Notes: generated by a model from the letters alone, not told the origin. A stretch of 20,723 nucleotides of DNA from Ferroacidibacillus organovorans (GCF_001642725.1 NZ_LSUQ01000044.1:1-20723); one strand, 5' to 3'; positions 299 to 20,428 are shown, counted from the stretch's first letter. Numbers and translations are program-made.

Positions 299-1054
299 AT
301 GAATCTGTGGACAGATATCCATCCGTGGAATTCCTGGCGTCCGGACGTCTTTTTTCTGGTTCTTCTCCTTGGCGTGATGTATCAGGTGGTCACTCGTGAG
401 AAAACAAGGTCGCCGGTCTCCTTTTTTCTTGGTCTCCTTCTTTTGTATTTGGCGTTAGGTCCGCTCGCGGCGCTCGGAGAGCGCGCTTCGTTTACGGCAT
501 ACATCATTCAGATGCTCCTCATGACGATGGTGCTTCCTTGGCTGCTCGTTCTCCGTCAACCCGATTTCGTCCTGCGACCACTGCTTGGCATCGGGTGGAT
601 CAAGCGCTTGGTCAGGTACGCGACGCATCCGCTTATCGCGCTGGTCTTTTTCAACGCCCTGCTCACAGCGATGCTGCTTCCCTCCGTTTTGAATCTTGTC
701 GTAACGATAAATTGGTTGCATATCGTAGCGCAGAGCGTCACGGCGCTCGCGGCAATTTGCTTTTGGTGGCCGATTGCCAACCCGCTGCGTGAAGAGAAAG
801 AGCTCACACGTGGACGGAAAATTCTCTACATCATCTACTCGATGAATTTCATGATGCCAATCCTTGTCGCGCTGTTTGTCTCTAATCACTCGTGGTATCA
901 AGATTTGGCGCGCGGCGCGGGACAACTCGGAATAAACGCACTCGCCGATCAGCAGATTGGCAGTGTCGTTATGCTTTGCGCGATGTATCTCGTTTATGGA
1001 ACGATCGGATCGAGAATCTACGTGCGCCAAGATCAATCGGTTTGGTATGAGTAA
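299..1054 (+). CDS. ctaG: Cytochrome c oxidase assembly factor, Caa3_CtaG family membrane protein
   Basis: Polytopic 251-aa protein with family-like segments W.P near the N-terminus, HP.IA...FN, FWWPI..P and DQQIG..M. It lies directly upstream of ctaA-ctaB. Confidence 0.85.
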   Translation: MNLWTDIHPWNSWRPDVFFLVLLLGVMYQVVTREKTRSPVSFFLGLLLLYLALGPLAALGERASFTAYIIQMLLMTMVLPWLLVLRQPDFVLRPLLGIGWIKRLVRYATHPLIALVFFNALLTAMLLPSVLNLVVTINWLHIVAQSVTALAAICFWWPIANPLREEKELTRGRKILYIIYSMNFMMPILVALFVSNHSWYQDLARGAGQLGINALADQQIGSVVMLCAMYLVYGTIGSRIYVRQDQSVWYE

Positions 1055-1130: not shown

Positions 1131-1135
1131 GGAGG
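1131..1135 (+). promoter_or_regulatory. Shine-Dalgarno site of ctaA
   Basis: GGAGG lies 6 nt before ATG 1142, which is in frame with the ORF at 1277-2104. Confidence 0.8.
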
Positions 1136-1141
1136 ATTTTT

Positions 1142-2104
1142 ATGACCTATAAATTGCCCCTCGCAACAACGCTGTTTCTCTTTTCGCTCTCGGTCATCGG
1201 CGCGCTTGTCGTTGGACTCAATGCGGGATTTGTCTGACCAGACTGGCCACTCTGCAACGGTTCACTGATCCCACCGTTGCATGGGCTTGTGCTCGTTGAG
1301 TACATGCATCGCTTGATCGCGCTGATTGCAAGCATTCTCATTCCGTTCAATGCAATTCACATGTGGTGGATGCATCGGAAAAATCGTTTGACGTCCCGCC
1401 TCGCACTTTTGTCTATGCTTTTTCTCGCACTGCAAGTTGCGCTAGGCGCGTTGATCGTCGTGTTCGTCCTGCCCGGCGCGTTTACAACGATTGATGTGGC
1501 GAATAGTTTCCTACTCCTCATCGTGCTGTCTGCAATGACGGCAGTCGGTTGGCGGGAGCACAGACAAAAGACGAAGCAACCGAGCGCAGAGAAGCTGCAA
1601 ACGGACGCCGATCGCGCAAAACGGTTTCGCCTTCCCGTTTTTTTTGCGCTCGGAACGATCTTTCTTCAATCACTCGTGGGAGGCTATTTTCGTCACTCTG
1701 GGAACAGTCAAGCGCTGTTCGGGCAACATTCGTATTTGCTCAGTCACCATCAACGGCAGGTGCCGAGTGAATTTGAAGCGTTGTTCTGGCTGGTTGTGCA
1801 CATCAGCGTTACGGCGGCTGTTTTCGCGTCCGTCGTATGGCTACTCACGGTGGCCATGCGTTTTGGACAGTATCGCGCGGGTGCGTTTGGCCTCCTTTGG
1901 CTTGTGATCTACCAGATTATCCTTGGGTTCGTGACGCTTCAAACCAAACTCTCCGTCATCTCGGACACGCTTCACTTTGCCGGAGCGAATGCGATGGTCG
2001 GAGTTGCCGGATATCTCGTGGCGCAGGTTCTCCTCGACCTATCGGCGGTGCGCATCGAGGCGCGCGAAAAAACACGGCGCAAGATGGTTCCGGCACACTC
2101 GTAA
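1142..2104 (+). CDS. ctaA: Heme A synthase (COX15/CtaA family), 320 codons, interrupted by an in-frame TGA at codon 32 (1235-1237); either recoded or a pseudogene
   Basis: Manual translation gives MTYKLPLATTLFLFSLSVIGALVVGLNAGFV*PDWPLCNGSLIPPLHGLVLVEYMHRLIA. The G..C(*)PDWPLC.G and E..HR motifs are diagnostic of Cys-pair heme A synthases. LQ..LGA, VVH and TLH follow, and ctaB is adjacent. Confidence 0.92.
1253..1281 (+). other. Perfect 9-bp stem-loop 15 nt downstream of the in-frame TGA (SECIS-like position)
   Basis: TGCAACGGT (1253-1261), an 11-nt loop TCACTGATCCC, then ACCGTTGCA (1273-1281). The inverted repeat is certain; its function is not. Confidence 0.45.
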
Positions 2105-2129: not shown

Positions 2130-3062
2130 ATGAGATACCGAAAAGCGGTTGCAACGGGCGCACAGGACATGGCCGTCGATGTGCAATCGGGGGGGGCAGT
2201 ACCGCGCACGATAAGAGGTGTCGTGCGCGATTTAATCAACGTGACCAAACCGGGCATCACGATGTCCAATGCGATGATGACGTTTGTAGGTATTTGGCTT
2301 AGCGCAGGCAGACACCCTGCGTTCTCGCTCGCCATGATGACACTTGCCGGCAGCAGTCTCGTGGTGATGGGCGGATGCGCGATGAACAATTTTATGGATC
2401 GGGATATCGATCAGTTGATGACGCGAACGAAAAAAAGGCCACTGCCAAATCAACGGTTGTCTGGTTGGTCGGTGATCTCGCTCGGCGCGCTGCTCGCGTT
2501 TCTTGGCGTCGCCCTGTTGTGCGTCTATGTCAATCTGCTGTCGGCTGTGATGGCGCTGATCGGGTTATTTTTCTATGTGATCGTATATACAGGACTCACA
2601 AAGCGCACGACCACGCTTAGCACCGTGATTGGAAGCGTGTCAGGTGCGATGCCGCCGCTTATCGGCTGGACGGCGATGTCCGGTACGCTTTCTACAGGAG
2701 CGTGGCTGCTCTTTCTCTTTATGTTCATCTGGCAACCTCCGCACTTTTGGGCGCTCAGCATGCGCCGGGTCAAAGAGTACGCGGCGGCAAGGATTCCTCT
2801 TTTGCCAGTCAAATATGGCTTTGCGCCAACCAAACGACAGATCGTCGCGTGGACAGTTCTCTTAGTGCCTGTATCCCTCTTGCTGTATGTCGCGCATGTC
2901 ACAGATGTCTTCTACCTGATTTCCGCACTGCTTCTCGGAGGTGTTTGGATTGTCAAAGCGTTGCGCGGATTGCGCGCCAAAGATGACATCGCATGGGCCA
3001 CAGAGATGTTCAAGTTTTCACTGATCTATCTCACGGGCATGGCGGCCGCGATGGTGATATGA
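2130..3062 (+). CDS. ctaB: Protoheme IX farnesyltransferase (heme O synthase, CtaB/CyoE)
   Basis: Motifs TKPGI, NNFMDRDIDQLMTRTKKRPLP, GAMPPLIGW, WQPPHFWAL and EYAAARIPLLP. ATG 2130 follows AAAGGGG; the ORF-track start at 1977 overlaps ctaA. Confidence 0.96.
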   Translation: MRYRKAVATGAQDMAVDVQSGGAVPRTIRGVVRDLINVTKPGITMSNAMMTFVGIWLSAGRHPAFSLAMMTLAGSSLVVMGGCAMNNFMDRDIDQLMTRTKKRPLPNQRLSGWSVISLGALLAFLGVALLCVYVNLLSAVMALIGLFFYVIVYTGLTKRTTTLSTVIGSVSGAMPPLIGWTAMSGTLSTGAWLLFLFMFIWQPPHFWALSMRRVKEYAAARIPLLPVKYGFAPTKRQIVAWTVLLVPVSLLLYVAHVTDVFYLISALLLGGVWIVKALRGLRAKDDIAWATEMFKFSLIYLTGMAAAMVI

Positions 3063-3094: not shown

Positions 3095-3880
3095 TCACGT
3101 TTGCGATTGAACGACCATGCAGTTTCGCTCTTCGAGCGCCTTGATGAAGTCGACAGGCGCGTCCTGATTTGTAATCAATGCGCGCGGCTCGTACAGGCGC
3201 GCTACGGGTGAGAATGTCACTTTCCCGAATTTACTGCCATCCGCTACGATGTATCCGCTCGTAGCGGTTTTTAGCATCATGGAATCGGTTCGCCCCTCCA
3301 TTAAGTTAGGCGTTGTAAACCCCGCTTGTAAATCAACACCATCCACGCCGACAAACGCGATATCCGCATTCATGTTCTGCAAGGCTTCATCTGCGAGATG
3401 ACCGACTGCGGCGTAGGATCCGTTGCGCACAACGCCGCCGATCATGACGAGCGTGATGTGATCGACTGCCGCGACTTCTGCCGCAATGTTGATGGCTGTT
3501 GTCACGATGGTGATGTCCTGTTTTTTTAGGAGTTCCCGAGCGATGTGCGTGGTGGTTGTTCCTGCGCTTAGAATGACCACTTGCCCGTTTTTCACAAGTG
3601 ATGCGGCAATTTTTGCGATCTCGCGCTTTTCTTGGGTGTGCGTATTCAACTTTTCTTGAAACAACAATTCGAGAGGTTGCGCTGCATTGGCGACAGCCCC
3701 TCCGCGGACGCGGCGAATGAAATTCTGTGACTCTAGAATCTCCAAATCTCTCCGCAGTGTCACTTCACTCACGGCAAACCAATCTCTCAATTGTTCAATT
3801 CGCACTTCTCCGTGTTCTTCTAAATAGGTAACAATAAAGTTGCGACGTTCAAACGCGCTGTGTCCTTCAAGTGTCTCCAT
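3095..3880 (-). CDS. DeoR/GlpR-family transcriptional regulator (AgaR-like context)
   Basis: N-terminal HTH (VSEVTLRRDLEILE...RVRGGA) and a DeoR sensor domain (SAGTTT, ADIAFVGVDG, ADGSKFG). It is divergent from the sugar operon. Confidence 0.95.
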   Translation of the reverse strand: METLEGHSAFERRNFIVTYLEEHGEVRIEQLRDWFAVSEVTLRRDLEILESQNFIRRVRGGAVANAAQPLELLFQEKLNTHTQEKREIAKIAASLVKNGQVVILSAGTTTTHIARELLKKQDITIVTTAINIAAEVAAVDHITLVMIGGVVRNGSYAAVGHLADEALQNMNADIAFVGVDGVDLQAGFTTPNLMEGRTDSMMLKTATSGYIVADGSKFGKVTFSPVARLYEPRALITNQDAPVDFIKALEERNCMVVQSQT

Positions 3881-3894
3881 GGATGTGTGATTCC

Positions 3895-3926
3895 CTTTCT
3901 AAGGGAGTGTCTAATCCCTTAGAAAG
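3895..3926. repeat. Perfect 12-bp inverted repeat overlapping the ribosome-binding site of the DeoR gene
   Basis: CTTTCTAAGGGA (3895-3906), 8 nt, then TCCCTTAGAAAG (3915-3926). Confidence 0.75.
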
Positions 3927-4065
3927 TATTCTAGTACAGATTAACGTATTGCGCTATGAAAAGCAGCGATCGAATGACGTTTCGAATTACTTTCGTTAGT
4001 ATAAAAATATGTTTATTTTTATGTACGAAATGTGTACAAATACGATTGATTGTGATACTGTTCGA

Positions 4066-4081
4066 ATGAAGACGGTTTCAT
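4066..4081 (+). promoter_or_regulatory. Probable cre site (CcpA catabolite-responsive element)
   Basis: ATGAAGACGGTTTCAT is a near-palindrome with central CG. Its 14-mer core has one mismatch to TGWNANCGNTNWCA. It lies about 40 nt upstream of the first gene of a sugar catabolic operon. Confidence 0.62.
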
Positions 4082-4119
4082 AGTTTTGTTTATATAAACG
4101 GATGGAGAGGAAGAGTGCG

Positions 4120-5523
4120 ATGAACGAAGAAGGTAATCAGGCCGGCAAGGGACTCGTTCGCGGAATCAGCCTTTTTCAAGCGACGGCCATCAACATGTCG
4201 CAAATGGTGGGCATTGGCCCATTCATCACGATTCCCTTGATCCTGTCTGCCATGGGAGGGCCGCAAGCGATCTTTGGCTGGATCGCAGGCGCGATTTTGG
4301 CAATGGCCGACGGGCTCGTGTGGAGTGAACTCGGGGCAGCGATGCCCGGCGAGGGTGGTTCTTATGTGTACTTGCGCGAAGCATTCCAGTATCGGTCGGG
4401 AAAAATTATGCCCTTTCTTTTTGTGTGGTCAACACTGATCGCGACGCCGCTGATCATGTCGACCGGAATGATTGGCATGGCAAACTACTTGAGCTTTTTC
4501 TGGCCTGGAATGACAGCGCTTGACACGAAACTCGCGGCTGTCGCCATCACCATCATCACCGTTGCGCTGCTCTATCGCCGAATCAATTCGGTGGGCAGAA
4601 TTACGACCGTGTTATGGGCTGGCATGATTCTAACCGTTTTGATCATGATCGTGGCAGGCGCCACGCACTTTAATCCGCACCTTGCGTTTGCTTTCCCGAG
4701 TAACGCCTTTCTCCCATCAAAGTTTCTTCTGGGACTCGGTGGGGGCATGCTGATCTCGATTTACGATTACATGGGATACTATACGATCTGCTACATGGGG
4801 GATGAAGTTAAAAACCCTGGTAAGACCATTCCAAAGTCTGTCATTTTGTCGATTATTGCAGTAGGTATTATCGATATCTTTATGAATCTCGGCGTGATCG
4901 GCGTTGTGCCTTGGAAAATTGCGATGAACAGCCAGAATATCGGTACGCTTTTTATGCAGGATGTGTGGGGAAAACCGGGCGCTGCAATCATTACGCTCCT
5001 CATTCTTTGGACTGCGTTCGCGTCCGTGTACACAGGGCTCCTTGGTGCGTCTCGACTGCCCTATAACGCGGCTGCCGACGGGCTTTTTTTCCGAAGCTTC
5101 GGGAAGCTTCATGAGAAGTATAACTTTCCACACATCTCGCTGCTTGTCATGGGGTTGATCACAGCGATTTGCTGTTTCTTTAATCTCTCGCAGATCATCA
5201 ACGCGTTGATGGCCGTCGCCATCGTCGTTCAGTTCATGGGGCAGGTTGCGGCGCTCACGGTGCTGCGCAAACGTCAACCCCATCTGCATCGACCGTTTCG
5301 CCAGTGGCTCTACCCGATTCCGAGTATCATCGCGTTTGTGGGTTGGGCCTACGTGCTTTATTCGTCAGGTTGGTCGGCGATTGAACTGGCGATCGGTTGG
5401 ACGGCGCTTGGCGTCATTGCATTCTTAATCTGGGCGTCTCGGGAGAAGCAGTGGCCGTTTGGCGAAAAAATGATTCATGAACCCTACCTGACAGAGCAGG
5501 AGAACGCGGGATCGCAATTTTAA
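4120..5523 (+). CDS. APC-superfamily (amino acid-polyamine-organocation) permease, probable amino-sugar importer
   Basis: About 12 hydrophobic segments with TM1 MVGIGPF, WSELGAAMPGEGGSYVYL, GDEVKNPGKTIP, SRLPY..A.DG.F and RPFR..LYP. ATG 4120 follows GGAGAGG; ATG 4102 is an alternative start. Confidence 0.92.
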   Translation: MNEEGNQAGKGLVRGISLFQATAINMSQMVGIGPFITIPLILSAMGGPQAIFGWIAGAILAMADGLVWSELGAAMPGEGGSYVYLREAFQYRSGKIMPFLFVWSTLIATPLIMSTGMIGMANYLSFFWPGMTALDTKLAAVAITIITVALLYRRINSVGRITTVLWAGMILTVLIMIVAGATHFNPHLAFAFPSNAFLPSKFLLGLGGGMLISIYDYMGYYTICYMGDEVKNPGKTIPKSVILSIIAVGIIDIFMNLGVIGVVPWKIAMNSQNIGTLFMQDVWGKPGAAIITLLILWTAFASVYTGLLGASRLPYNAAADGLFFRSFGKLHEKYNFPHISLLVMGLITAICCFFNLSQIINALMAVAIVVQFMGQVAALTVLRKRQPHLHRPFRQWLYPIPSIIAFVGWAYVLYSSGWSAIELAIGWTALGVIAFLIWASREKQWPFGEKMIHEPYLTEQENAGSQF

Positions 5524-5575
5524 TTGCACCATTGAATTGAGTACAGATGTGAATGCAAAAGGGAGACTGTTTTGA

Positions 5576-6517
5576 ATGACTCATGCACGCGTGGATGATG
5601 AGTTTGCTCCATTTGTCTTGGCGTTCGATTTTGGCGGCACTAAAATTGCCATCGCGACGGCGACGCGTGACGGTGAGATGCTCCAACGCACAGATTTGAG
5701 CACGGTCGCTTACGGAGATGGAAAGACTGCGTTACACCAAGCGATTCTGGCGGGACAAGCGTTGGTTCGGACGACCACGACGCAAACCAGGGGCACCCTG
5801 GTTTGCGTAGGCGTCGCCACGATGGGAATTACCCTTAAGGATCGCGTGCTGATGGCTCCAAACGTTCCCGGATGGGCGGAACTTCGCATGGAGGACAGCT
5901 TTCAAAGTGCCTTTCCGGGTATCGCGATCCAGATTGACAATGATGTGAAGGCGGCTGCGCTTGCGGAGTTGAAAAAAGGTGCGCTGCAAGATGTGGATGT
6001 TGGATTGTTTGTGAATCTGGGTACAGGTATTGCGCTGGCGTACACACTCGAAGGAAAGGTTCTGCAAGGCGCGCACGGAGCTTCCGGGGAAATCGCCTAC
6101 AACTTGCTCACCAAATTCGAACGGGCAGGCGCGCGTGATAACGTTGCGCCGCTGGAAGAATTTGCGGGTGGGAGATCCATTGGAGAGCGTGCCTCGCTCC
6201 ATTTTGGTGAAAAGATGTCGGCGGGGGATCTCTTTCGCAAAGCGCAGTTTGATATGGGCGCCAAACGATGGGTAGAGGAAACTCTGCAAGAAATCGCATT
6301 TCACTTGACCAATGTAATGATCGCCTGGGATCCGGGCGTTGTCGCGTTTGGTGGCGGTTTGATGGGTGCGGGTGATCTTATTTTACCGTATCTGTCAGGA
6401 TATTCAGAGCGCTTTGTTCCTTTTCCTCCGCAATTAAAAATGGCTCATTTTCGCCGCGACGCAGGGTTATACGGTGCCATCGAATTGGCACTTTTGGGAT
6501 GGAGGAAACACTCATGA
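5576..6517 (+). CDS. ROK-family sugar kinase
   Basis: DFGGTK ATP-binding motif, DNDVKAAALAE, NLGTGI and G.HG.SGEI; there is no N-terminal HTH. Confidence 0.92.
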   Translation: MTHARVDDEFAPFVLAFDFGGTKIAIATATRDGEMLQRTDLSTVAYGDGKTALHQAILAGQALVRTTTTQTRGTLVCVGVATMGITLKDRVLMAPNVPGWAELRMEDSFQSAFPGIAIQIDNDVKAAALAELKKGALQDVDVGLFVNLGTGIALAYTLEGKVLQGAHGASGEIAYNLLTKFERAGARDNVAPLEEFAGGRSIGERASLHFGEKMSAGDLFRKAQFDMGAKRWVEETLQEIAFHLTNVMIAWDPGVVAFGGGLMGAGDLILPYLSGYSERFVPFPPQLKMAHFRRDAGLYGAIELALLGWRKHS

Positions 6518-7560
6518 AAAACCACACACTCACAGAAATCAAAAACCAGCCGGCTTCATGGGAACAAACGCTAAAGATCGTCCCTCAGCAGTGGCGTGAC
6601 ATTGAGAAAGGGCTGACCCTCTCACCGAATACGAAGTTTCTTTTTACAGGTTGTGGCACATCGTTCTACCTCGCGCAAAGTGCGGCGCGCCTGTTCCAGA
6701 CGGTGACGGGACACGACGCGTCGGCGGTTCCTGCTTCGGAGATTTTTCTAAACGATATGAGTGTGTTATCGCGCGTGGCGCCAACCGTTGTGTTTGCGAT
6801 TTCGCGATCAGGCACCACGTCTGAAGTGCTGATGGCAGTCGATCACTTGGCGCAGCATCACAGAGCGGTCGACGTAATTGGCGTGACGTGCACAGCGGGC
6901 AGTACGCTTGAAAAAAATACGAGACACCACATGGTCCTCCCCCACGCAGCCGAAGAGTCGGTGGTCATGACCCAATCGTTTACGAATATGCTGCTCGCAA
7001 TCCAGTGGATCGGGGCAGCGCTTGCAATGCGTACGGATCTGATCGAAGAACTCGAGAGGCTGCCAGAACTGGCTGACCAGTCTCTCGCGGGAGCTGAACA
7101 CTTTGGAAAGACGTACGGGGCGGATGATGATCCGTCGTTTATTTTTCTTGGGCTTGGAGCCTATTATGGCCTTGCCGCAGAGGCGACACTCAAACTAAAG
7201 GAAATGACGCAAGTGCCGTGTGAGTATTACAACACGCTCGAGTTTCGTCACGGCCCAATCTCGATCGTGCGCGCCTCGACGCGGGTCATTATTCTGGCGG
7301 ATGAAGCGCACGCAACGTATACTCAGTCCCTTGCACGCGATGTGCGGGCTGTAGAAGGGCAGGTCGTCTGTCTTACGACGCAGTCGAATAGCACGCTTGC
7401 GGCGGAGCGCGGTGTATTTGCATTGCCGGATGGACTGTCCGATTGGAGCCGCGCGGTGCTTTACATGCCAGCGCTGCACTTTCTCGCTTACGAAAAGGCG
7501 ACGCAGCTCGGTTTTGATCCTGACGCGCCGCGCAACCTGAGTCAGGTGGTGATTCTATAA
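6514..7560 (+). CDS. Double SIS-domain sugar-phosphate isomerase/deaminase (AgaS/GlmD/GlmS-isomerase-like)
   Basis: Motifs TLTEIKNQP, GCGTS, ISRSGTTSE, SVVMTQSF, LKLKEM, EFRHGP and PDAPRNL. The start is an ATGA overlap with the ROK stop codon, with GGAGG upstream. Confidence 0.9.
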   Translation: MKNHTLTEIKNQPASWEQTLKIVPQQWRDIEKGLTLSPNTKFLFTGCGTSFYLAQSAARLFQTVTGHDASAVPASEIFLNDMSVLSRVAPTVVFAISRSGTTSEVLMAVDHLAQHHRAVDVIGVTCTAGSTLEKNTRHHMVLPHAAEESVVMTQSFTNMLLAIQWIGAALAMRTDLIEELERLPELADQSLAGAEHFGKTYGADDDPSFIFLGLGAYYGLAAEATLKLKEMTQVPCEYYNTLEFRHGPISIVRASTRVIILADEAHATYTQSLARDVRAVEGQVVCLTTQSNSTLAAERGVFALPDGLSDWSRAVLYMPALHFLAYEKATQLGFDPDAPRNLSQVVIL

Positions 7561-7563
7561 AGG

Positions 7564-8289
7564 ATGAACATTCGTGTCTTTGAGAATCCACAGTTGGCCG
7601 CCGTTTATGCGGCCGCATTGGTCGAGCAAGTCATTCAATCCATCCGCAATCCGGTCTTAGGTTTGGCGACCGGTTCCACGCCAATTCCATTATACGAATC
7701 CCTGGTGTCGTTTCACCGCCAGGGACTGAGTTTCGCGCATGTGACGGCACTCAACCTGGATGAGTATGTCGGGCTTTCAGCTGACCATCCGCAGAGCTAT
7801 CACTTCTTTATGAATGAACACCTTTTTCGACATGTGGATCTTCCGGAAGAGAAGCGATTTCTGCCAAATGGCGCGGCGCCTGATCTGGCACTTGAATGCG
7901 AGCGCTACGATCAGATCATCCGCGAACATCCGATCGATTTGCAGATCCTTGGCATCGGTTTGAACGGGCACATCGGGTTTAATGAGCCGGACGTTGCGCT
8001 CAAAGCGAACACGCACGTTGTGACGCTGGCGCGCGACACGATCGAAGCGAATGCACGCTTTTTTGGCGAACAAGAGCGCGTTCCGACGGAGGCGATCACG
8101 ATGGGGCTGCAGCCGATCCTGATGGCAAAAAAGGTGTTGTTGCTCGCATTCGGACGTGAAAAGGCCGATGCGGTGGTGAACGCGGTGCGTGGAGATGTGC
8201 GCACCTATTCCCCGGCAAGCATTTTGCAAGTACACCCAAATGTCACGTTTATCTTAGATCGCGAAGCGGCATATGTATTGGAGGCGTAA
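7564..8289 (+). CDS. nagB: Glucosamine-6-phosphate deaminase
   Basis: Motifs LGLATGSTP, NLDEYVGL...HPQSY, LGIGLNGHIGFNEP, AITMG and PASILQ.H. Confidence 0.95.
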   Translation: MNIRVFENPQLAAVYAAALVEQVIQSIRNPVLGLATGSTPIPLYESLVSFHRQGLSFAHVTALNLDEYVGLSADHPQSYHFFMNEHLFRHVDLPEEKRFLPNGAAPDLALECERYDQIIREHPIDLQILGIGLNGHIGFNEPDVALKANTHVVTLARDTIEANARFFGEQERVPTEAITMGLQPILMAKKVLLLAFGREKADAVVNAVRGDVRTYSPASILQVHPNVTFILDREAAYVLEA

Positions 8290-9147
<858 letters not shown>

Positions 9148-10101
9148 ATGAAACCGTACGTCTTGACGGTTACTGCCAACCCGGCGCTTGACAAAACCTA
9201 TTTTCTCGAGGCGTTCCGTCAGGGAGAGGTCAATCGCGTGCGCCGCGTGATGAAAGCGCCTGGCGGCAAGGGAATCAACGTCTTGCGCGTCTTGCACACC
9301 CTTGGCGTAAATGCTTGCGGTACAGGGTTTTTAGGGGGAAACACGGGTGAGTGGATCGCCGCTGAACTGACACGGATGGAGATATGCCACGATTTTTACA
9401 GGATTGCTGACGAGACGCGCACCACGGTCAATGTCCTTGAAACTGGGCTTTCGGAAGCGGCGCGGCGAAGCAGCGAACTGTTGGAACCGGGGCCGACGGT
9501 TGTGGAAGATATGACCCTCTTTTTCAAGCATCTGGAACCGCATTTGTCGATGGCGGATCACGTCGTCATGAGCGGGAGCCTGGCGCCTGGTTTGCCGACA
9601 GACTTTTACGCACAATGGATCAAGCGCACGGCGCGGCGCGGCGGAAAATGTTACGTGGATACGCGTGGGGACGCGATGGTCGAGGCGATCAAGGCGCGAC
9701 CGTATCTCGTAAAGATGAATCAAGTGGAGTTTGAGGAACTGCTTGATGTAAGGATGAGGGATCGCAAGGATTTTTACGATGGGCTTGAGACGCTGTGTGA
9801 AAAGGGATGTGACGTAGCGATCGTCACTTGCGGCGCAAAGGGATTTTACGCCCGCGCAGAGGATGGAAGTGTGTGGAAAGGTACCATGCCTGCGCTTGCC
9901 GCAGTCAATCCGGTGGGGAGTGGAGACGCCTTTTTCGCAGGACTTGTCGCTGCGCTTTCGCGGCATGAAGGCTTTGTTGACGCGTTGCGACTTGCGGGTG
10001 CGTGCGGTGCGAGCAATGCGCTGCGCGCTCAAGTCGCAGAAGTAGAGTATGATGAGGTTATGAAGTTAAGGGCGTGTCTGAAGATCGAAAAAGTGAGGTG
10101 A
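9148..10101 (+). CDS. 1-phosphofructokinase / tagatose-6-phosphate kinase family (PfkB/LacC/FruK)
   Basis: Motifs TVTANPALD, GGKGINV, SGSLAPG, K.N..E and NPVGSGDAFFAG. Confidence 0.93.
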   Translation: MKPYVLTVTANPALDKTYFLEAFRQGEVNRVRRVMKAPGGKGINVLRVLHTLGVNACGTGFLGGNTGEWIAAELTRMEICHDFYRIADETRTTVNVLETGLSEAARRSSELLEPGPTVVEDMTLFFKHLEPHLSMADHVVMSGSLAPGLPTDFYAQWIKRTARRGGKCYVDTRGDAMVEAIKARPYLVKMNQVEFEELLDVRMRDRKDFYDGLETLCEKGCDVAIVTCGAKGFYARAEDGSVWKGTMPALAAVNPVGSGDAFFAGLVAALSRHEGFVDALRLAGACGASNALRAQVAEVEYDEVMKLRACLKIEKVR

Positions 10102-10106
10102 CGGCT

Positions 10107-11063
10107 TTGGCGCAACCGTATGATCTGCCGCTGGAGGAGCTGGAGATGTATCAGCCAAAGCTCACGCGCGAGGTGGACTTTGACGCGTTTTGGGCGTCTA
10201 CGTTGGGCCTTATCAAGGATGCGAATTTGCAGGTTTCCATGCGCGAGATGGACTACCCGGTGGATGGCGTGCGCGTGTATGAACTCTCGTACTGCGGGTA
10301 TATGGGCGCGACGATCCGCGGTTTTTACGCGGTTCCTGATCGGGTCGGTCCGCATCCCGGCCTTGTCGTTTTTCACGGCTACAACTGGTCGTTTGACGGC
10401 GGCATCCACACTGTCGTGAATTGGGCGCTCCACGGTTACGCGACGTTTGGCATGCTGACGCGCGGACAACACAGCAGCCAGGACAATTCGATCAGTTCGC
10501 ACGGCCATCAGCTCGGCTGGATGACGAAGGGAATTCTAGATCCGCAGGAGTATCATTATCGCGGCGTGTACATGGATGCGGTGTTGGCGCTTGAAGTGCT
10601 CGCGCAACAACCGAACATCGATGCGCGGCGCATCGGAGTGACTGGCGGAAGCCAAGGGGGCGGACTCTCGCTCGCGGCTGCAGCGTTGTCTGAACGCGCG
10701 GCGGTGGTTGTCGCGGATTATCCCTATCTCTGTCATTTTCGTCGCGCCATGGATGTCTCACCGACGGGGCCATACCTTGAAATCAACGAGTTTTTTCGGA
10801 GAAATACGGCGCCACAGACTGAAGAGACGGCGATGAAGACACTCTCTTATTTCGATGTCATGAACCTCGCACCGAGGATCACGTGTCCTGTGCTCATCTC
10901 CGTCGGCTTGATCGATGAAATCACACCACCCTCCACGATTTTTGCGGCATACAATCATCTGACGTGCGCGAAGCAGATTCGCGTGTATCGCTATTTTGGA
11001 CACGAAGAGATGCCAGGGTTTCAGACGGAGAAGTTAGCTTATTTAAAAGCGTATCTAAAATAA
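10107..11063 (+). CDS. Acetylxylan esterase / cephalosporin-C deacetylase (carbohydrate esterase family 7)
   Basis: DLPLEEL N-terminus, FHGY, RGQ, GGSQGG nucleophile, GL.D...PP and GHE. TTG 10107 follows GAGGTG; GTG 10098 is an alternative start. Confidence 0.93.
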   Translation: MAQPYDLPLEELEMYQPKLTREVDFDAFWASTLGLIKDANLQVSMREMDYPVDGVRVYELSYCGYMGATIRGFYAVPDRVGPHPGLVVFHGYNWSFDGGIHTVVNWALHGYATFGMLTRGQHSSQDNSISSHGHQLGWMTKGILDPQEYHYRGVYMDAVLALEVLAQQPNIDARRIGVTGGSQGGGLSLAAAALSERAAVVVADYPYLCHFRRAMDVSPTGPYLEINEFFRRNTAPQTEETAMKTLSYFDVMNLAPRITCPVLISVGLIDEITPPSTIFAAYNHLTCAKQIRVYRYFGHEEMPGFQTEKLAYLKAYLK

Positions 11064-12633: not shown

Positions 12634-13566
12634 TCAACCCAGTTTGTTTATCTTGCTCGCGTTTACGAGGATACGATTTCCTTGGTTGTACCAGGTGACG
12701 CGCAATTCCGGATAGCGCGCGGCGAGATAGAGAGCCTGTTCTGAACTGCTTTCCACAAAATGCGTATAGCCCAGTTCGAGTGCCTTTTTGCCTTTCCAGT
12801 TCGCTCTGAATTCTGGGTTTTCTGCTACGTCGCCTTCTTCGCGAAGAACGACAGGGATGTCGATGCGAAATTTACGCAACCATTTTTCTGTACGCTCCCG
12901 ATCGATTTCAGGTCTGGACGTAATGATCACGTCTCCCGGTGAAACCATGGGGGCATAGGATCCAAGGGGCATTTCATCGCGTCGCGCAAGCATTCCTGCA
13001 AGATCATCGTTATCCCGCTCGTCATGCTTAAGATCATCCAGAAATACCCCATCCAAATCCCAAGCCGTGTGTTCATATTCGTGATCAGGCAAGTCATCGG
13101 TTCTGCTTTCCCCATTGATGCGATAGCGATTCCACGGGAACAGCACTTGGAGGTCGTCGTTCTTCCAGTCGATACAAATGTATTCCGGGTTGACGAGCGC
13201 CCCCGGCACTTTACAGACGACAAGTGTGGATACGGCATAGCCAGCATTGCGCAAGAAATTTCGGCAATTCAGTAGCGTCGTCCCTTTACCGGCTGAATCC
13301 TCACAGAGCAACACCTTTGCTTGCGCGTTGGGTGCTGAACCTATCCACTCCACCGAACTGTCGGCGCGATGGTATGCGATGAAGTAGACAGGGAGTCCTG
13401 TGAGAAATGACATGTGCATGCCTGCGAATGTTCCGCCACGCAATACAATGACAATGGCGTTAAAGTTTTCAGAGCGAACGCGCTCGGCCAAGGCGTCTAA
13501 TCCCAAGGTTATCGCATTATAGTCAAGATAGGCGTTGCCGAGCCATTCTGTGATATGTGTTGGCAT
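12634..13566 (-). CDS. Type I phosphoribosyltransferase fused to a C-terminal HAD-like phosphatase domain
   Basis: The N-terminal half has IVIVLRGG, a PRPP loop VLLCEDSAGKGTTL and VLFPW. The C-terminal half has WDLDGVF, IITSRPE, WK and HFVES. ATG 13566 follows AAGGAG. Confidence 0.8.
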   Translation of the reverse strand: MPTHITEWLGNAYLDYNAITLGLDALAERVRSENFNAIVIVLRGGTFAGMHMSFLTGLPVYFIAYHRADSSVEWIGSAPNAQAKVLLCEDSAGKGTTLLNCRNFLRNAGYAVSTLVVCKVPGALVNPEYICIDWKNDDLQVLFPWNRYRINGESRTDDLPDHEYEHTAWDLDGVFLDDLKHDERDNDDLAGMLARRDEMPLGSYAPMVSPGDVIITSRPEIDRERTEKWLRKFRIDIPVVLREEGDVAENPEFRANWKGKKALELGYTHFVESSSEQALYLAARYPELRVTWYNQGNRILVNASKINKLG

Positions 13567-13833
13567 AAATTGTACTCCTTGATTCAAAATTATTTTATAA
13601 ACGTGCAAATTAGGAACCGTATGACGGCGTATACCGTGCCATGATTTTGAGATAGACTACTCTCTATGTACCAGTTTTCTTGGCGGTTTACAAGTTGCGT
13701 TTACGTTTACGCATGGTATCCTTTATTCATATTCACTTGTGACATCGGGGGAGATTCTAGGCGTTTTCGCCGGAATATTCGTTATTATTGTTGACCCCAT
13801 TCTCCTTTAGAGGAGTGAGTTGAGATTCCCGAA

Positions 13834-19167: not shown

Positions 19168-19203
19168 ATATATTATAACATATATTTGAGTGTTATAATA
19201 TAT
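19168..19203. promoter_or_regulatory. Perfect 13-bp inverted repeat containing two outward-facing extended -10 elements (divergent promoter/operator)
   Basis: ATATATTATAACA (19168-19180), 10 nt, then TGTTATAATATAT (19191-19203). Each arm reads TGTTATAAT (TGnTATAAT) toward its own gene. Confidence 0.78.
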
Positions 19204-19219
19204 GCGTGAGGTGATGAGC

Positions 19220-19783
19220 TTGAATCCTGAACAGTTGACCGAGCAGATTGGCCACCGCTTGCGGATGCTGCGAAAAGAGCGCGGCTTTACGCTTGAGCAA
19301 TTGGCAGAGAAGACGGGCGTCAGCAAACCGATGCTGGGACAGATTGAGCGCGGAGAATCCAATCCGACGGTTGTAACACTTTGGAAGATTGCGAGTGGTC
19401 TGCACGTGCCTTTTTCTGCTTTCCTGGATGCGCCAGGCGGGCGCGCGACGGTTGTGCGTAAGCGTGAACAGGCGATTGTGACGGATGAGGATGGTCGCTA
19501 TATCGTTCAGAGCTTGTTGGCTGATCGTCGCGCTGTTTCGACAGATCTTTATCAGATCACGCTGTTGCCGGGTTGCGCGCATCACGCCGAGGCGCATGGC
19601 GCCCACGTGACGGAAGGCATCTGGGTTCAGTCGGGCTCTCTTACCCTTTTGCTCGGCGAAGAAACGCATGTCCTCCAGGAAGGAGACGCCCTGTCGTTTC
19701 AGGCTGAATGCGATCACACATACGCAAATGCTGGGAACGAAGCGTGTGTGTACATCGTGCTGTTAACCTATCTGCCATCGTGA
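19220..19783 (+). CDS. XRE-family HTH regulator with C-terminal cupin domain (SutR/PuuR-like)
   Basis: LR.LRKERG.TLEQLA..TGVSK.ML.QIERGESNPT..TLWKIA, followed by a cupin H...E....G.L...L..GD...F...H.Y.N. TTG 19220 follows GAGGTG; ATG 19202 and 19214 are alternatives. Confidence 0.93.
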   Translation: MNPEQLTEQIGHRLRMLRKERGFTLEQLAEKTGVSKPMLGQIERGESNPTVVTLWKIASGLHVPFSAFLDAPGGRATVVRKREQAIVTDEDGRYIVQSLLADRRAVSTDLYQITLLPGCAHHAEAHGAHVTEGIWVQSGSLTLLLGEETHVLQEGDALSFQAECDHTYANAGNEACVYIVLLTYLPS

Positions 19784-19804
19784 GGTTTGGAAGGGGTGTG
19801 CCGC

Positions 19805-20428
19805 ATGCTGCTCGCGGTTTTGCATGGAGCAATGCTTTCTATCGCGCTGATTCTGCCGATCGGGATGCAAAATGGTTTTCTACTGAGCCAAGGGGCGCTG
19901 CAAAAACGGTGGGTTGGCGCGCTTCCGGCACTGATTACGGCGGGGATCTGCGATACGCTTCTCGTGGGTTTGGCTGTTTTTGGCGTGTCGGCGGTGGCAC
20001 TTCACATCGTGTGGCTGCGCGATGCGTTCGGCGCTGTGGGCGTCCTTTTCTTGCTGTACATGGGGTGGGGGACATGGCGCGATCGGACGAAGGTTCATCC
20101 GGATCAATCGGCATCCGCCTGGCCTCCTGGCAGGCAGATCAAATTCGCCGCCTCCGTATCGCTTTTGAACCCGCACGCCTTGATCGATACGCTCGCAGTC
20201 ATCGGCGGGAGCGCCTTGATGTACACATCGAGGGGTGATCGCTTGGCGTTTGGCGTAGCGTGCGCCGCCGTTTCGTGGTTCTGGTTTCTGGTTTTGGTCA
20301 CCGTCGGGCATGTCGCTGGGCGCGCGGCGGTCAGGCGCTCGTCGCTCGGGACGATCAACGCCATCTCTGCGATCATGATGTGGGCGTCGGCCGTCTACCT
20401 CAGTTACGTCATTCTCACCTTTCACTAA
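19805..20428 (+). CDS. LysE/ArgO family amino acid exporter
   Basis: Motifs LILPIGMQNGF...QG, CD..L...V.G, SLLNPHA.IDT..VIG and S..WF. Confidence 0.92.
   Translation: MLLAVLHGAMLSIALILPIGMQNGFLLSQGALQKRWVGALPALITAGICDTLLVGLAVFGVSAVALHIVWLRDAFGAVGVLFLLYMGWGTWRDRTKVHPDQSASAWPPGRQIKFAASVSLLNPHALIDTLAVIGGSALMYTSRGDRLAFGVACAAVSWFWFLVLVTVGHVAGRAAVRRSSLGTINAISAIMMWASAVYLSYVILTFH

Follow-up and report, generated by a model that had tools for sequence, protein, structure and literature searches.

The closest described relative of the protein considered here is heme A synthase of Bacillus subtilis, CtaA (6A2J/6IED, type 1B), an eight-helix protein of family PF02628 whose gene lies next to ctaB. Its first outward loop carries the Cys pair C35/C42, and a second Cys pair lies in a later outward loop. 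Enzymes with a Cys pair in loop 1 only are designated type 1C (class C in the scheme of Lewin and Hederstedt) in PMC12808453, which also describes the Cys pair as important for heme A synthase activity. The role of the pair in type-1 heme A synthases is still unsettled. Selenoproteins are rarely kept by aerobic bacteria according to a 2026 review (PMC13188914). Here we describe a ctaA gene from Ferroacidibacillus organovorans in which the codon for the first Cys of the pair is an in-frame TGA. The gene lies in a stretch of 20,723 nucleotides (GCF_001642725.1, NZ_LSUQ01000044.1:1-20723), called the window below, and in our assessment it probably encodes a U-x5-C selenoprotein form of type-1C heme A synthase, with a Sec/Cys pair in place of the Cys pair.

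The gene occupies 1142..2104 on the plus strand, as assigned from translation, Pfam and an AlphaFold model. A Shine-Dalgarno sequence, GGAGG, read directly at 1131..1135 (+), stands 6 nt 5' of the ATG at 1142. Translation gave 320 codons with a single in-frame TGA, codon 32 (1235..1237, +), in the context ...LNAGFV-TGA-PDWPLCNG...EYMHR; 288 sense codons follow up to the TAA stop at 2102-2104, with no other stop. An earlier note on this DNA had reported a strong ribosome binding site and an ATG at 1142 opening a frame with one TGA, continued by 288 sense codons free of a second stop, and our re-reading and translation agree on both points. The 31 codons 5' of the TGA (1142..1234, +), delimited by pN/pS and the AlphaFold model, encode transmembrane helix 1 (model helix 4-25). 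Aligned with Cys42 of B. subtilis CtaA is Cys38, encoded by TGC at 1253..1255 (+), which would be the pair partner of the proposed Sec codon. The upstream neighbor is ctaG (299..1054, +), for a caa3 oxidase assembly factor (Pfam Caa3_CtaG, E = 4.8e-34). Downstream lies ctaB (2130..3062, +), for heme O synthase of the UbiA family (Pfam UbiA, E = 1.5e-60).

The read-through product is predicted to be a COX15/CtaA heme A synthase, converting heme O to heme A. It matched the Pfam family COX15-CtaA (PF02628) with 74.4 bits (cut-off 29.9, E = 1.1e-20), and phmmer aligned it with 6A2J at E = 5e-12. An AlphaFold model made from an alignment of 23 sequences (mean pLDDT 87.9, pTM 0.87) is an eight-helix bundle of two four-helix halves. 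Foldseek matched this model to 6A2J with E = 1.6e-7 and TM scores of 0.73/0.75, and to the Aquifex enzyme 8AW5 with TM scores of 0.59/0.70. Helix 1 (residues 4-25) is encoded wholly 5' of the TGA and is one of the four helices of the first bundle in both the model and 6A2J. Alignment with 6A2J, corrected for an offset of six residues in the chain as deposited, placed codon 32 at C35 and Cys38 at C42, in agreement with the claim that the TGA sits at the conserved first Cys of the pair. The window enzyme differs from B. subtilis CtaA in that this first Cys is TGA-encoded, in a pair spacing of x5 instead of x6, and in sequence generally, being only 22% identical to it when aligned by structure. 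Translation of the second outward loop of window CtaA (residues about 186-205) revealed no Cys, so the window enzyme lacks the second pair of the type 1B enzyme and would be of type 1C. With Cys38 present, this assignment would hold only if the UGA is read as either Sec or Cys.

The conservation of the codon-32 column was assessed in an alignment of 265 homologues, 256 of which cover it. Cys occupies the column in 245 of the 256, and all 245 are C/C at both pair columns. Among the remaining rows ten have V, and look misaligned, and one is G/C; Trp was found in none of the 256. With its TGA at a column that is Cys in nearly all covering homologues, the window gene would form a Sec/Cys pair with these homologues.

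A genome scan yielded nine related loci (L001-L009). The earlier note had named recurrence of TGA at this column in relatives as a test of its proposal, and TGA was seen there in two of the nine: L001 (JAKACY010000138; NAGFA-TGA-PHWPLCDG) and L002 (DAHWJX010000140; NAGFV-TGA-PNWPLCDG), both with about 50% protein identity. L003-L009 carry TGT or TGC, which makes three TGA and seven TGT/TGC codons in the window and the nine loci together. In each of the three TGA carriers a GGAGG-type site precedes an ATG that opens a frame of 310-329 codons with a single TGA, and the order ctaA to ctaB also recurs in L001 and L002. With the same column TGA in two of nine independently assembled loci, the in-frame TGA is, on the sequences compared, far beyond chance.

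Upstream of ctaA the two related loci differ from the window: in L001 (2116-4116) and L002 (7841-9803) the gene is preceded by genes for a rhodanese-metallo-beta-lactamase fusion and a lipoate-protein ligase, not by ctaG. L002 additionally has a CoA-disulfide-reductase-type gene carrying a rhodanese domain. Sec forms of the CoA-disulfide-reductase-type and rhodanese families are known elsewhere; in the L001 and L002 loci these genes are intact.

Synonymous sites are saturated between the three carriers, with a gene-wide pS of 0.76-0.79. Since synonymous sites have reached saturation, the TGA has persisted over a very long period. Pairwise pN/pS was 0.26-0.38 for the 31 codons before the TGA and 0.15-0.18 for codons 33-54. 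Low pN/pS at saturated pS implies that the upstream 31 codons are translated in the ctaA frame, and the ratios indicate that purifying selection acts on both sides of the TGA. Recurrence, the Cys column and selection together support the proposal of the earlier note that this is a Sec-containing or otherwise recoded CtaA; from them we infer Sec itself.

Further carriers may be present among database proteins that begin after the column. Truncation before the column occurred in only nine of the 265 rows: P0010 and P0021, encoded by L001 and L002, and seven further N-truncated proteins known as proteins only (P0003, P0004, P0011, P0014, P0020, P0242 and P0246). The window's own annotated product, of 266 aa, likewise leaves out the N-terminus. 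P0003 (266 aa) is 79% identical to window CtaA. P0004, from Ferroacidibacillus organovorans (284 aa), is 60% identical and begins, five codons past the column, with MCDG. Relatives at a slightly greater distance are complete and have Cys at the column. A search of 1.84 billion representatives added the truncated P0242 and P0246, the latter 41% identical to window CtaA. P0242 (155 aa) is identical to window CtaA over about 110 residues beginning at Met55, runs out of frame after them and has no N-terminus; by this match it represents the window gene in a second assembly variant.

A maximum-likelihood tree was built without the N-terminal columns, with P0242 left out and the other six further truncated proteins included. 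All nine TGA or truncated rows fell into one clade of 16 (support 100/99) together with seven Cys rows, and none of the 16 rows outside this clade was TGA or truncated. The tree needs at least four changes between the TGA and Cys states, two of them forced by well-supported branches, and L002 (TGA) is closest to L003 (TGT). As placed in this tree, the scattered TGA and Cys states within the clade are typical of Sec/Cys exchange between closely related sequences.

A two-tier hairpin, a candidate SECIS, was located downstream of the TGA at 1245..1286 (+), with a lower stem at about 1245-1249/1282-1286, an upper stem at 1253-1261/1273-1281 and a loop at 1262-1272. The upper stem, a perfect 9 bp in which TGCAACGGT (1253-1261) pairs with ACCGTTGCA (1273-1281) across the 11-nt loop, begins 15 nt past the TGA, giving a UGA-to-loop distance of 24 nt. 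Inverted-repeat listing and folding both recovered this stem as the earlier note had described it, and RNAfold added the lower stem, with an MFE of -20.1 kcal/mol for 1235-1294. Among the 25 short-range inverted repeats listed for the 20.7-kb window, seven are true hairpins with separate arms, so that a hairpin in a 30-nt slot is roughly a 1% event. The same two-tier hairpin occurs at the same place in all three carriers. Dinucleotide shuffling gave z = -1.77, -2.50 and -1.92 for the window, L001 and L002, with equal folds in 11, 1 and 5 of 200 shuffles. The nearer Cys loci L003, L004 and L009 have no hairpin (z = +0.59, +1.17 and +0.83); the distant Cys carriers L005, L006 and L008 also fold stably in the hairpin region.

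The contribution of the protein sequence to this fold was evaluated by resampling synonymous codons with the protein fixed. The window then had z = -1.31, and the fractions folding as well by MFE were 0.114, 0.156 and 0.190 in the window, L001 and L002, not significant in any of the three. Under the same resampling the 9-bp stem of the window had P = 0.048 in the window and 0.66 and 0.10 in L001 and L002, the latter two being out of sample. Amino-acid sequence alone yields 6.6-7.1 of the nine stem pairs. The amino-acid sequence thus accounts for most of the fold. Hairpin pS between carriers was 0.79, 0.57 and 0.56 against about 0.78 elsewhere, which over about 10 sites is at most a slight and not a significant reduction; neither the resampling nor the synonymous conservation is counted in favor of the hairpin. 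A 14-pair consensus formed 13, 12 and 14 pairs in the three carriers and 6-10 in the seven Cys carriers, a comparison biased by the derivation of the consensus from the carriers. RNAalifold found compensatory changes at none of the 14 consensus pairs across the three carriers, so the covariation that the earlier note had proposed to look for did not appear. One trace may lie in the protein. The CAT codon of His47 (1280..1282, +; alignment A1) gives three hairpin pairs, and His47 is present in all five TGA or truncated rows covering its column, in two of five Cys clusters within the clade and in none of nine outside it. This distribution suggests that RNA structure shapes the protein sequence at His47.

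The hairpin was also compared with the bSECIS model of Zhang and Gladyshev, as set out in the legend to Fig. 2 of PMC13188914: a loop of 3-9 nt with G in the first two loop positions, a stem of 4-16 bp, a distance of 16-37 nt from the UGA and an MFE of at most -7.5 kcal/mol. Spacing (24 nt) and energy of the window hairpin satisfy the model. Our own implementation nevertheless returned no compliant hairpin in the window, the loop being 11 nt long and G absent from its first two positions. The SECIS-positioned hairpin proposed previously stands as regards position and departs from the bSECIS consensus; the accompanying caveat, that the loop lacks the consensus G, holds. The same scan found two compliant hairpins in L001 and three in L002, and it does not discriminate, because five of the seven Cys carriers also pass. 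Canonical SECIS elements are present in 87.4% of BSepDB entries by that resource's own account, and are thus usual but not universal. Taken together, the hairpin is compatible with a SECIS but is not evidence by itself.

Genes for the Sec machinery were sought around all three carriers. As the earlier note had cautioned for the window, no selA, selB, selD or tRNA-Sec was found within its 20.7 kb, nor in the L001 or L002 loci, and Rfam and tRNA scans of the three gave no matches. Tables S1/S2 of PMC5029168 record SelD, SelA and SelB in two of seven Alicyclobacillus genomes, A. contaminans DSM 17975 and A. pohliae DSM 22757, with no known selenoproteins in the former and seven in the latter. The same tables give Kyrpidia tusciae as lacking the Sec machinery and Sulfobacillus species as having it, with 7-8 selenoproteins. 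By these tables the Sec trait is patchy in the wider group, and at least one member has the machinery but no known client. Sec-CtaA could be the missing selenoprotein behind such orphan machinery, for example in A. contaminans. A literature search on Sec machinery in Ferroacidibacillus or Acidibacillus found nothing relevant; the BSepDB supplement, in the part available, includes F. organovorans in its list of genomes analyzed and gives no Sec status for them.

The absence of machinery genes from these three loci bears on the reading that competes best with Sec, conserved leaky termination or a selenium-free recoding in which the UGA is read by a Trp or Cys tRNA or by a tRNA dedicated to Cys insertion. 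In Bacillus UGA is a leaky stop, and Cys-inserting Sec-like tRNAs exist. Under leaky readthrough little full-length enzyme would be made, and the hairpin would merely slow the ribosome. The UGA-C context of all three carriers and the departure of the window hairpin from the bSECIS consensus also fit such a reading. We nonetheless hold it to be unlikely. Trp never occurs at the column in the 256 covering homologues, Cys38 and its flanks are kept, and the Cys pair is reported to be important for activity (PMC12808453). A throttle could sit anywhere, whereas a stop kept at the exact redox Cys through synonymous saturation is a signature of Sec.

Less probable still, and in our estimate improbable, is a split or decaying gene, in which translation stops at the UGA and a seven-helix protein is made from an internal start, or in which the locus is a pseudogene. 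Gene callers do annotate the downstream part alone (products of 266, 284, 288 and 228 aa), and in-frame TTG 1277 and ATG 1304 are available as starts. Neither codon, however, is preceded by a Shine-Dalgarno sequence, and the called internal starts vary among relatives, Met55 being Ile or Phe in L001 and L002. The 31 upstream codons have their own ribosome binding site and ATG and are under purifying selection, and helix 1, which they encode, is a member of the first bundle in the model as well as in 6A2J. A TGC or TGT misread in sequencing or assembly, although only one base away, has next to no chance of being correct and, like a fresh nonsense mutation, is excluded because TGA recurs in two assemblies of different species with pS saturated between carriers (about 0.78), with N-truncated proteins in seven further clusters that include the 79%-identical relative and the second variant of the window protein. 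General reassignment of TGA (code 4 or 25) was ruled out because TGA terminates 14 of the 24 delimited genes of the window, in which it is the commonest true stop.

In the selenocysteine reading, which we favor, the ribosome would start at ATG 1142, make transmembrane helix 1 and reach the UGA, at which moment the hairpin (1245-1286) would lie 7-50 nt downstream. A SelB-type factor with Sec-tRNA(Sec) would bind the hairpin, and Sec would be inserted in place of termination. The resulting U32-x5-C38 pair would replace the Cys pair in the first outward-facing loop, in a selenoprotein that would occur within a single Ferroacidibacillus-related clade. There the selenol may take over the redox work of the first Cys, probably by forming a selenenylsulfide with Cys38. 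Such a swap would argue that the pair performs redox chemistry beyond serving as a structural staple, and the U and C variants would form a natural series for probing its role.

More tentatively, and on balance somewhat against the odds, window CtaA and its relatives may represent a new selenoprotein family confined to one Ferroacidibacillus-related clade, and the first case of a selenoenzyme in heme-cofactor synthesis for aerobic respiration, with Sec on the acid-exposed outer face. Selenols have a low pKa, and Ferroacidibacillus is an acidophile. If this reading is true, the selenol would stay reactive at the outer, acid-exposed face, where a thiol would be protonated; general pKa values suggest that Sec may be of advantage there. 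Already on the favored selenocysteine reading, selenoproteins would gain an enzyme family and would reach respiratory-chain assembly in aerobic Bacilli, where the 2026 review calls them rare.

A literature search that left aside the website of BSepDB, supplements on bioRxiv and journals behind subscription found no work coupling heme A synthase with selenocysteine. Among the matches listed, the sole relevant paper was PMC12808453, which mentions a selenoprotein only as a selenoprotein-W-like neighboring gene, and COX15 did not appear in the selenoproteome literature among the matches listed. No heme A synthase stands among the 119 families or subfamilies in Table 1 of PMC13188914, a review whose text nowhere names PF02628. 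Neither COX15 nor heme A occurs in the BSepDB paper or the available part of its supplement, or in the deep-Sep text and supplements. The only match in NCBIfam release 20 was weak and to a heme A synthase model of alphaproteobacterial type; models of selenoprotein type gave none. Public annotation omits the first helix, including that of the Ferroacidibacillus organovorans protein, and Cys-based surveys of heme A synthases would miss or misclassify these enzymes.

The remainder of the window was also annotated. A cluster for sugar or amino-sugar catabolism at 3095-11063 comprises a DeoR regulator (minus strand), an amino-acid-type permease, a ROK kinase, a SIS-domain protein, a glucosamine-6-P-isomerase-like protein, a tagatose-bisphosphate-type class II aldolase, a PfkB kinase and an AXE1 esterase. 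By its aldolase, which is 64-66% identical to proteins of named species and 95% identical to that of one further relative, the window falls near Alicyclobacillus. The ROK-family gene contains, at 5772-5816, an inverted repeat of 21 nt with 86% complementarity and a spacer of 3 nt. The 324-aa ORF at 12634-13608 (minus strand) had no Pfam match. A perfect inverted repeat of 13 bp at 19168-19203, ATATATTATAACA / TGTTATAATATAT, extends to the start codon of an HTH-cupin regulator gene (19202-19783) and looks like a candidate operator. A crude search of the window, L001 and L002 for further genes interrupted by TGA, which missed ctaA itself, returned only antisense frames and one adjacent gene pair. 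The frames 19202-19783 and 19787-20428 were ruled out as a recoding candidate, being two adjacent in-frame genes: the HTH-cupin gene stops with TGA at 19781-19783, and at 19787 a LysE-type exporter gene begins in that frame.

Among known systems, the Cys-pair type-1C enzymes of Alicyclobacillaceae relatives (for example Kyrpidia L009; L003; L004) are 39-54% identical to window CtaA along its whole length. They have in common with the window the motif NAGF-x-C-P-x-WPLC, here with TGA at its first Cys, and the ctaA-ctaB order; in contrast, their codon at the column is TGT or TGC, and those that were folded (L003, L004 and L009) have no hairpin. E. coli fdhF-type genes with a SECIS inside the open reading frame share with ctaA a UGA at a redox Cys column and a stem-loop directly downstream. 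The UGA-to-loop distance of 16-37 nt and MFE below -7.5 kcal/mol of fdhF-type/bSECIS genes agree with ctaA (24 nt), and fdhF-type selenoprotein genes, like ctaA, have both Cys and UGA homologues in other species. Window ctaA departs from them in its 11-nt loop (3-9 nt in the model), in lacking an early G and in showing no covariation. The nearest comparison for the proposed location of Sec is with the membrane and extracytoplasmic selenoproteins in Table 1 of PMC13188914, namely YeeE/YedE, the SaoP permease, the SO_0444 transporter (UxC) and DsbA/DsbG-like proteins. None of these acts in heme biosynthesis or oxidase assembly or has a U-x5-C motif, and most come from anaerobes, but they carry Sec in the membrane or outside the cytoplasm within a U...C redox motif, as is proposed here for CtaA.
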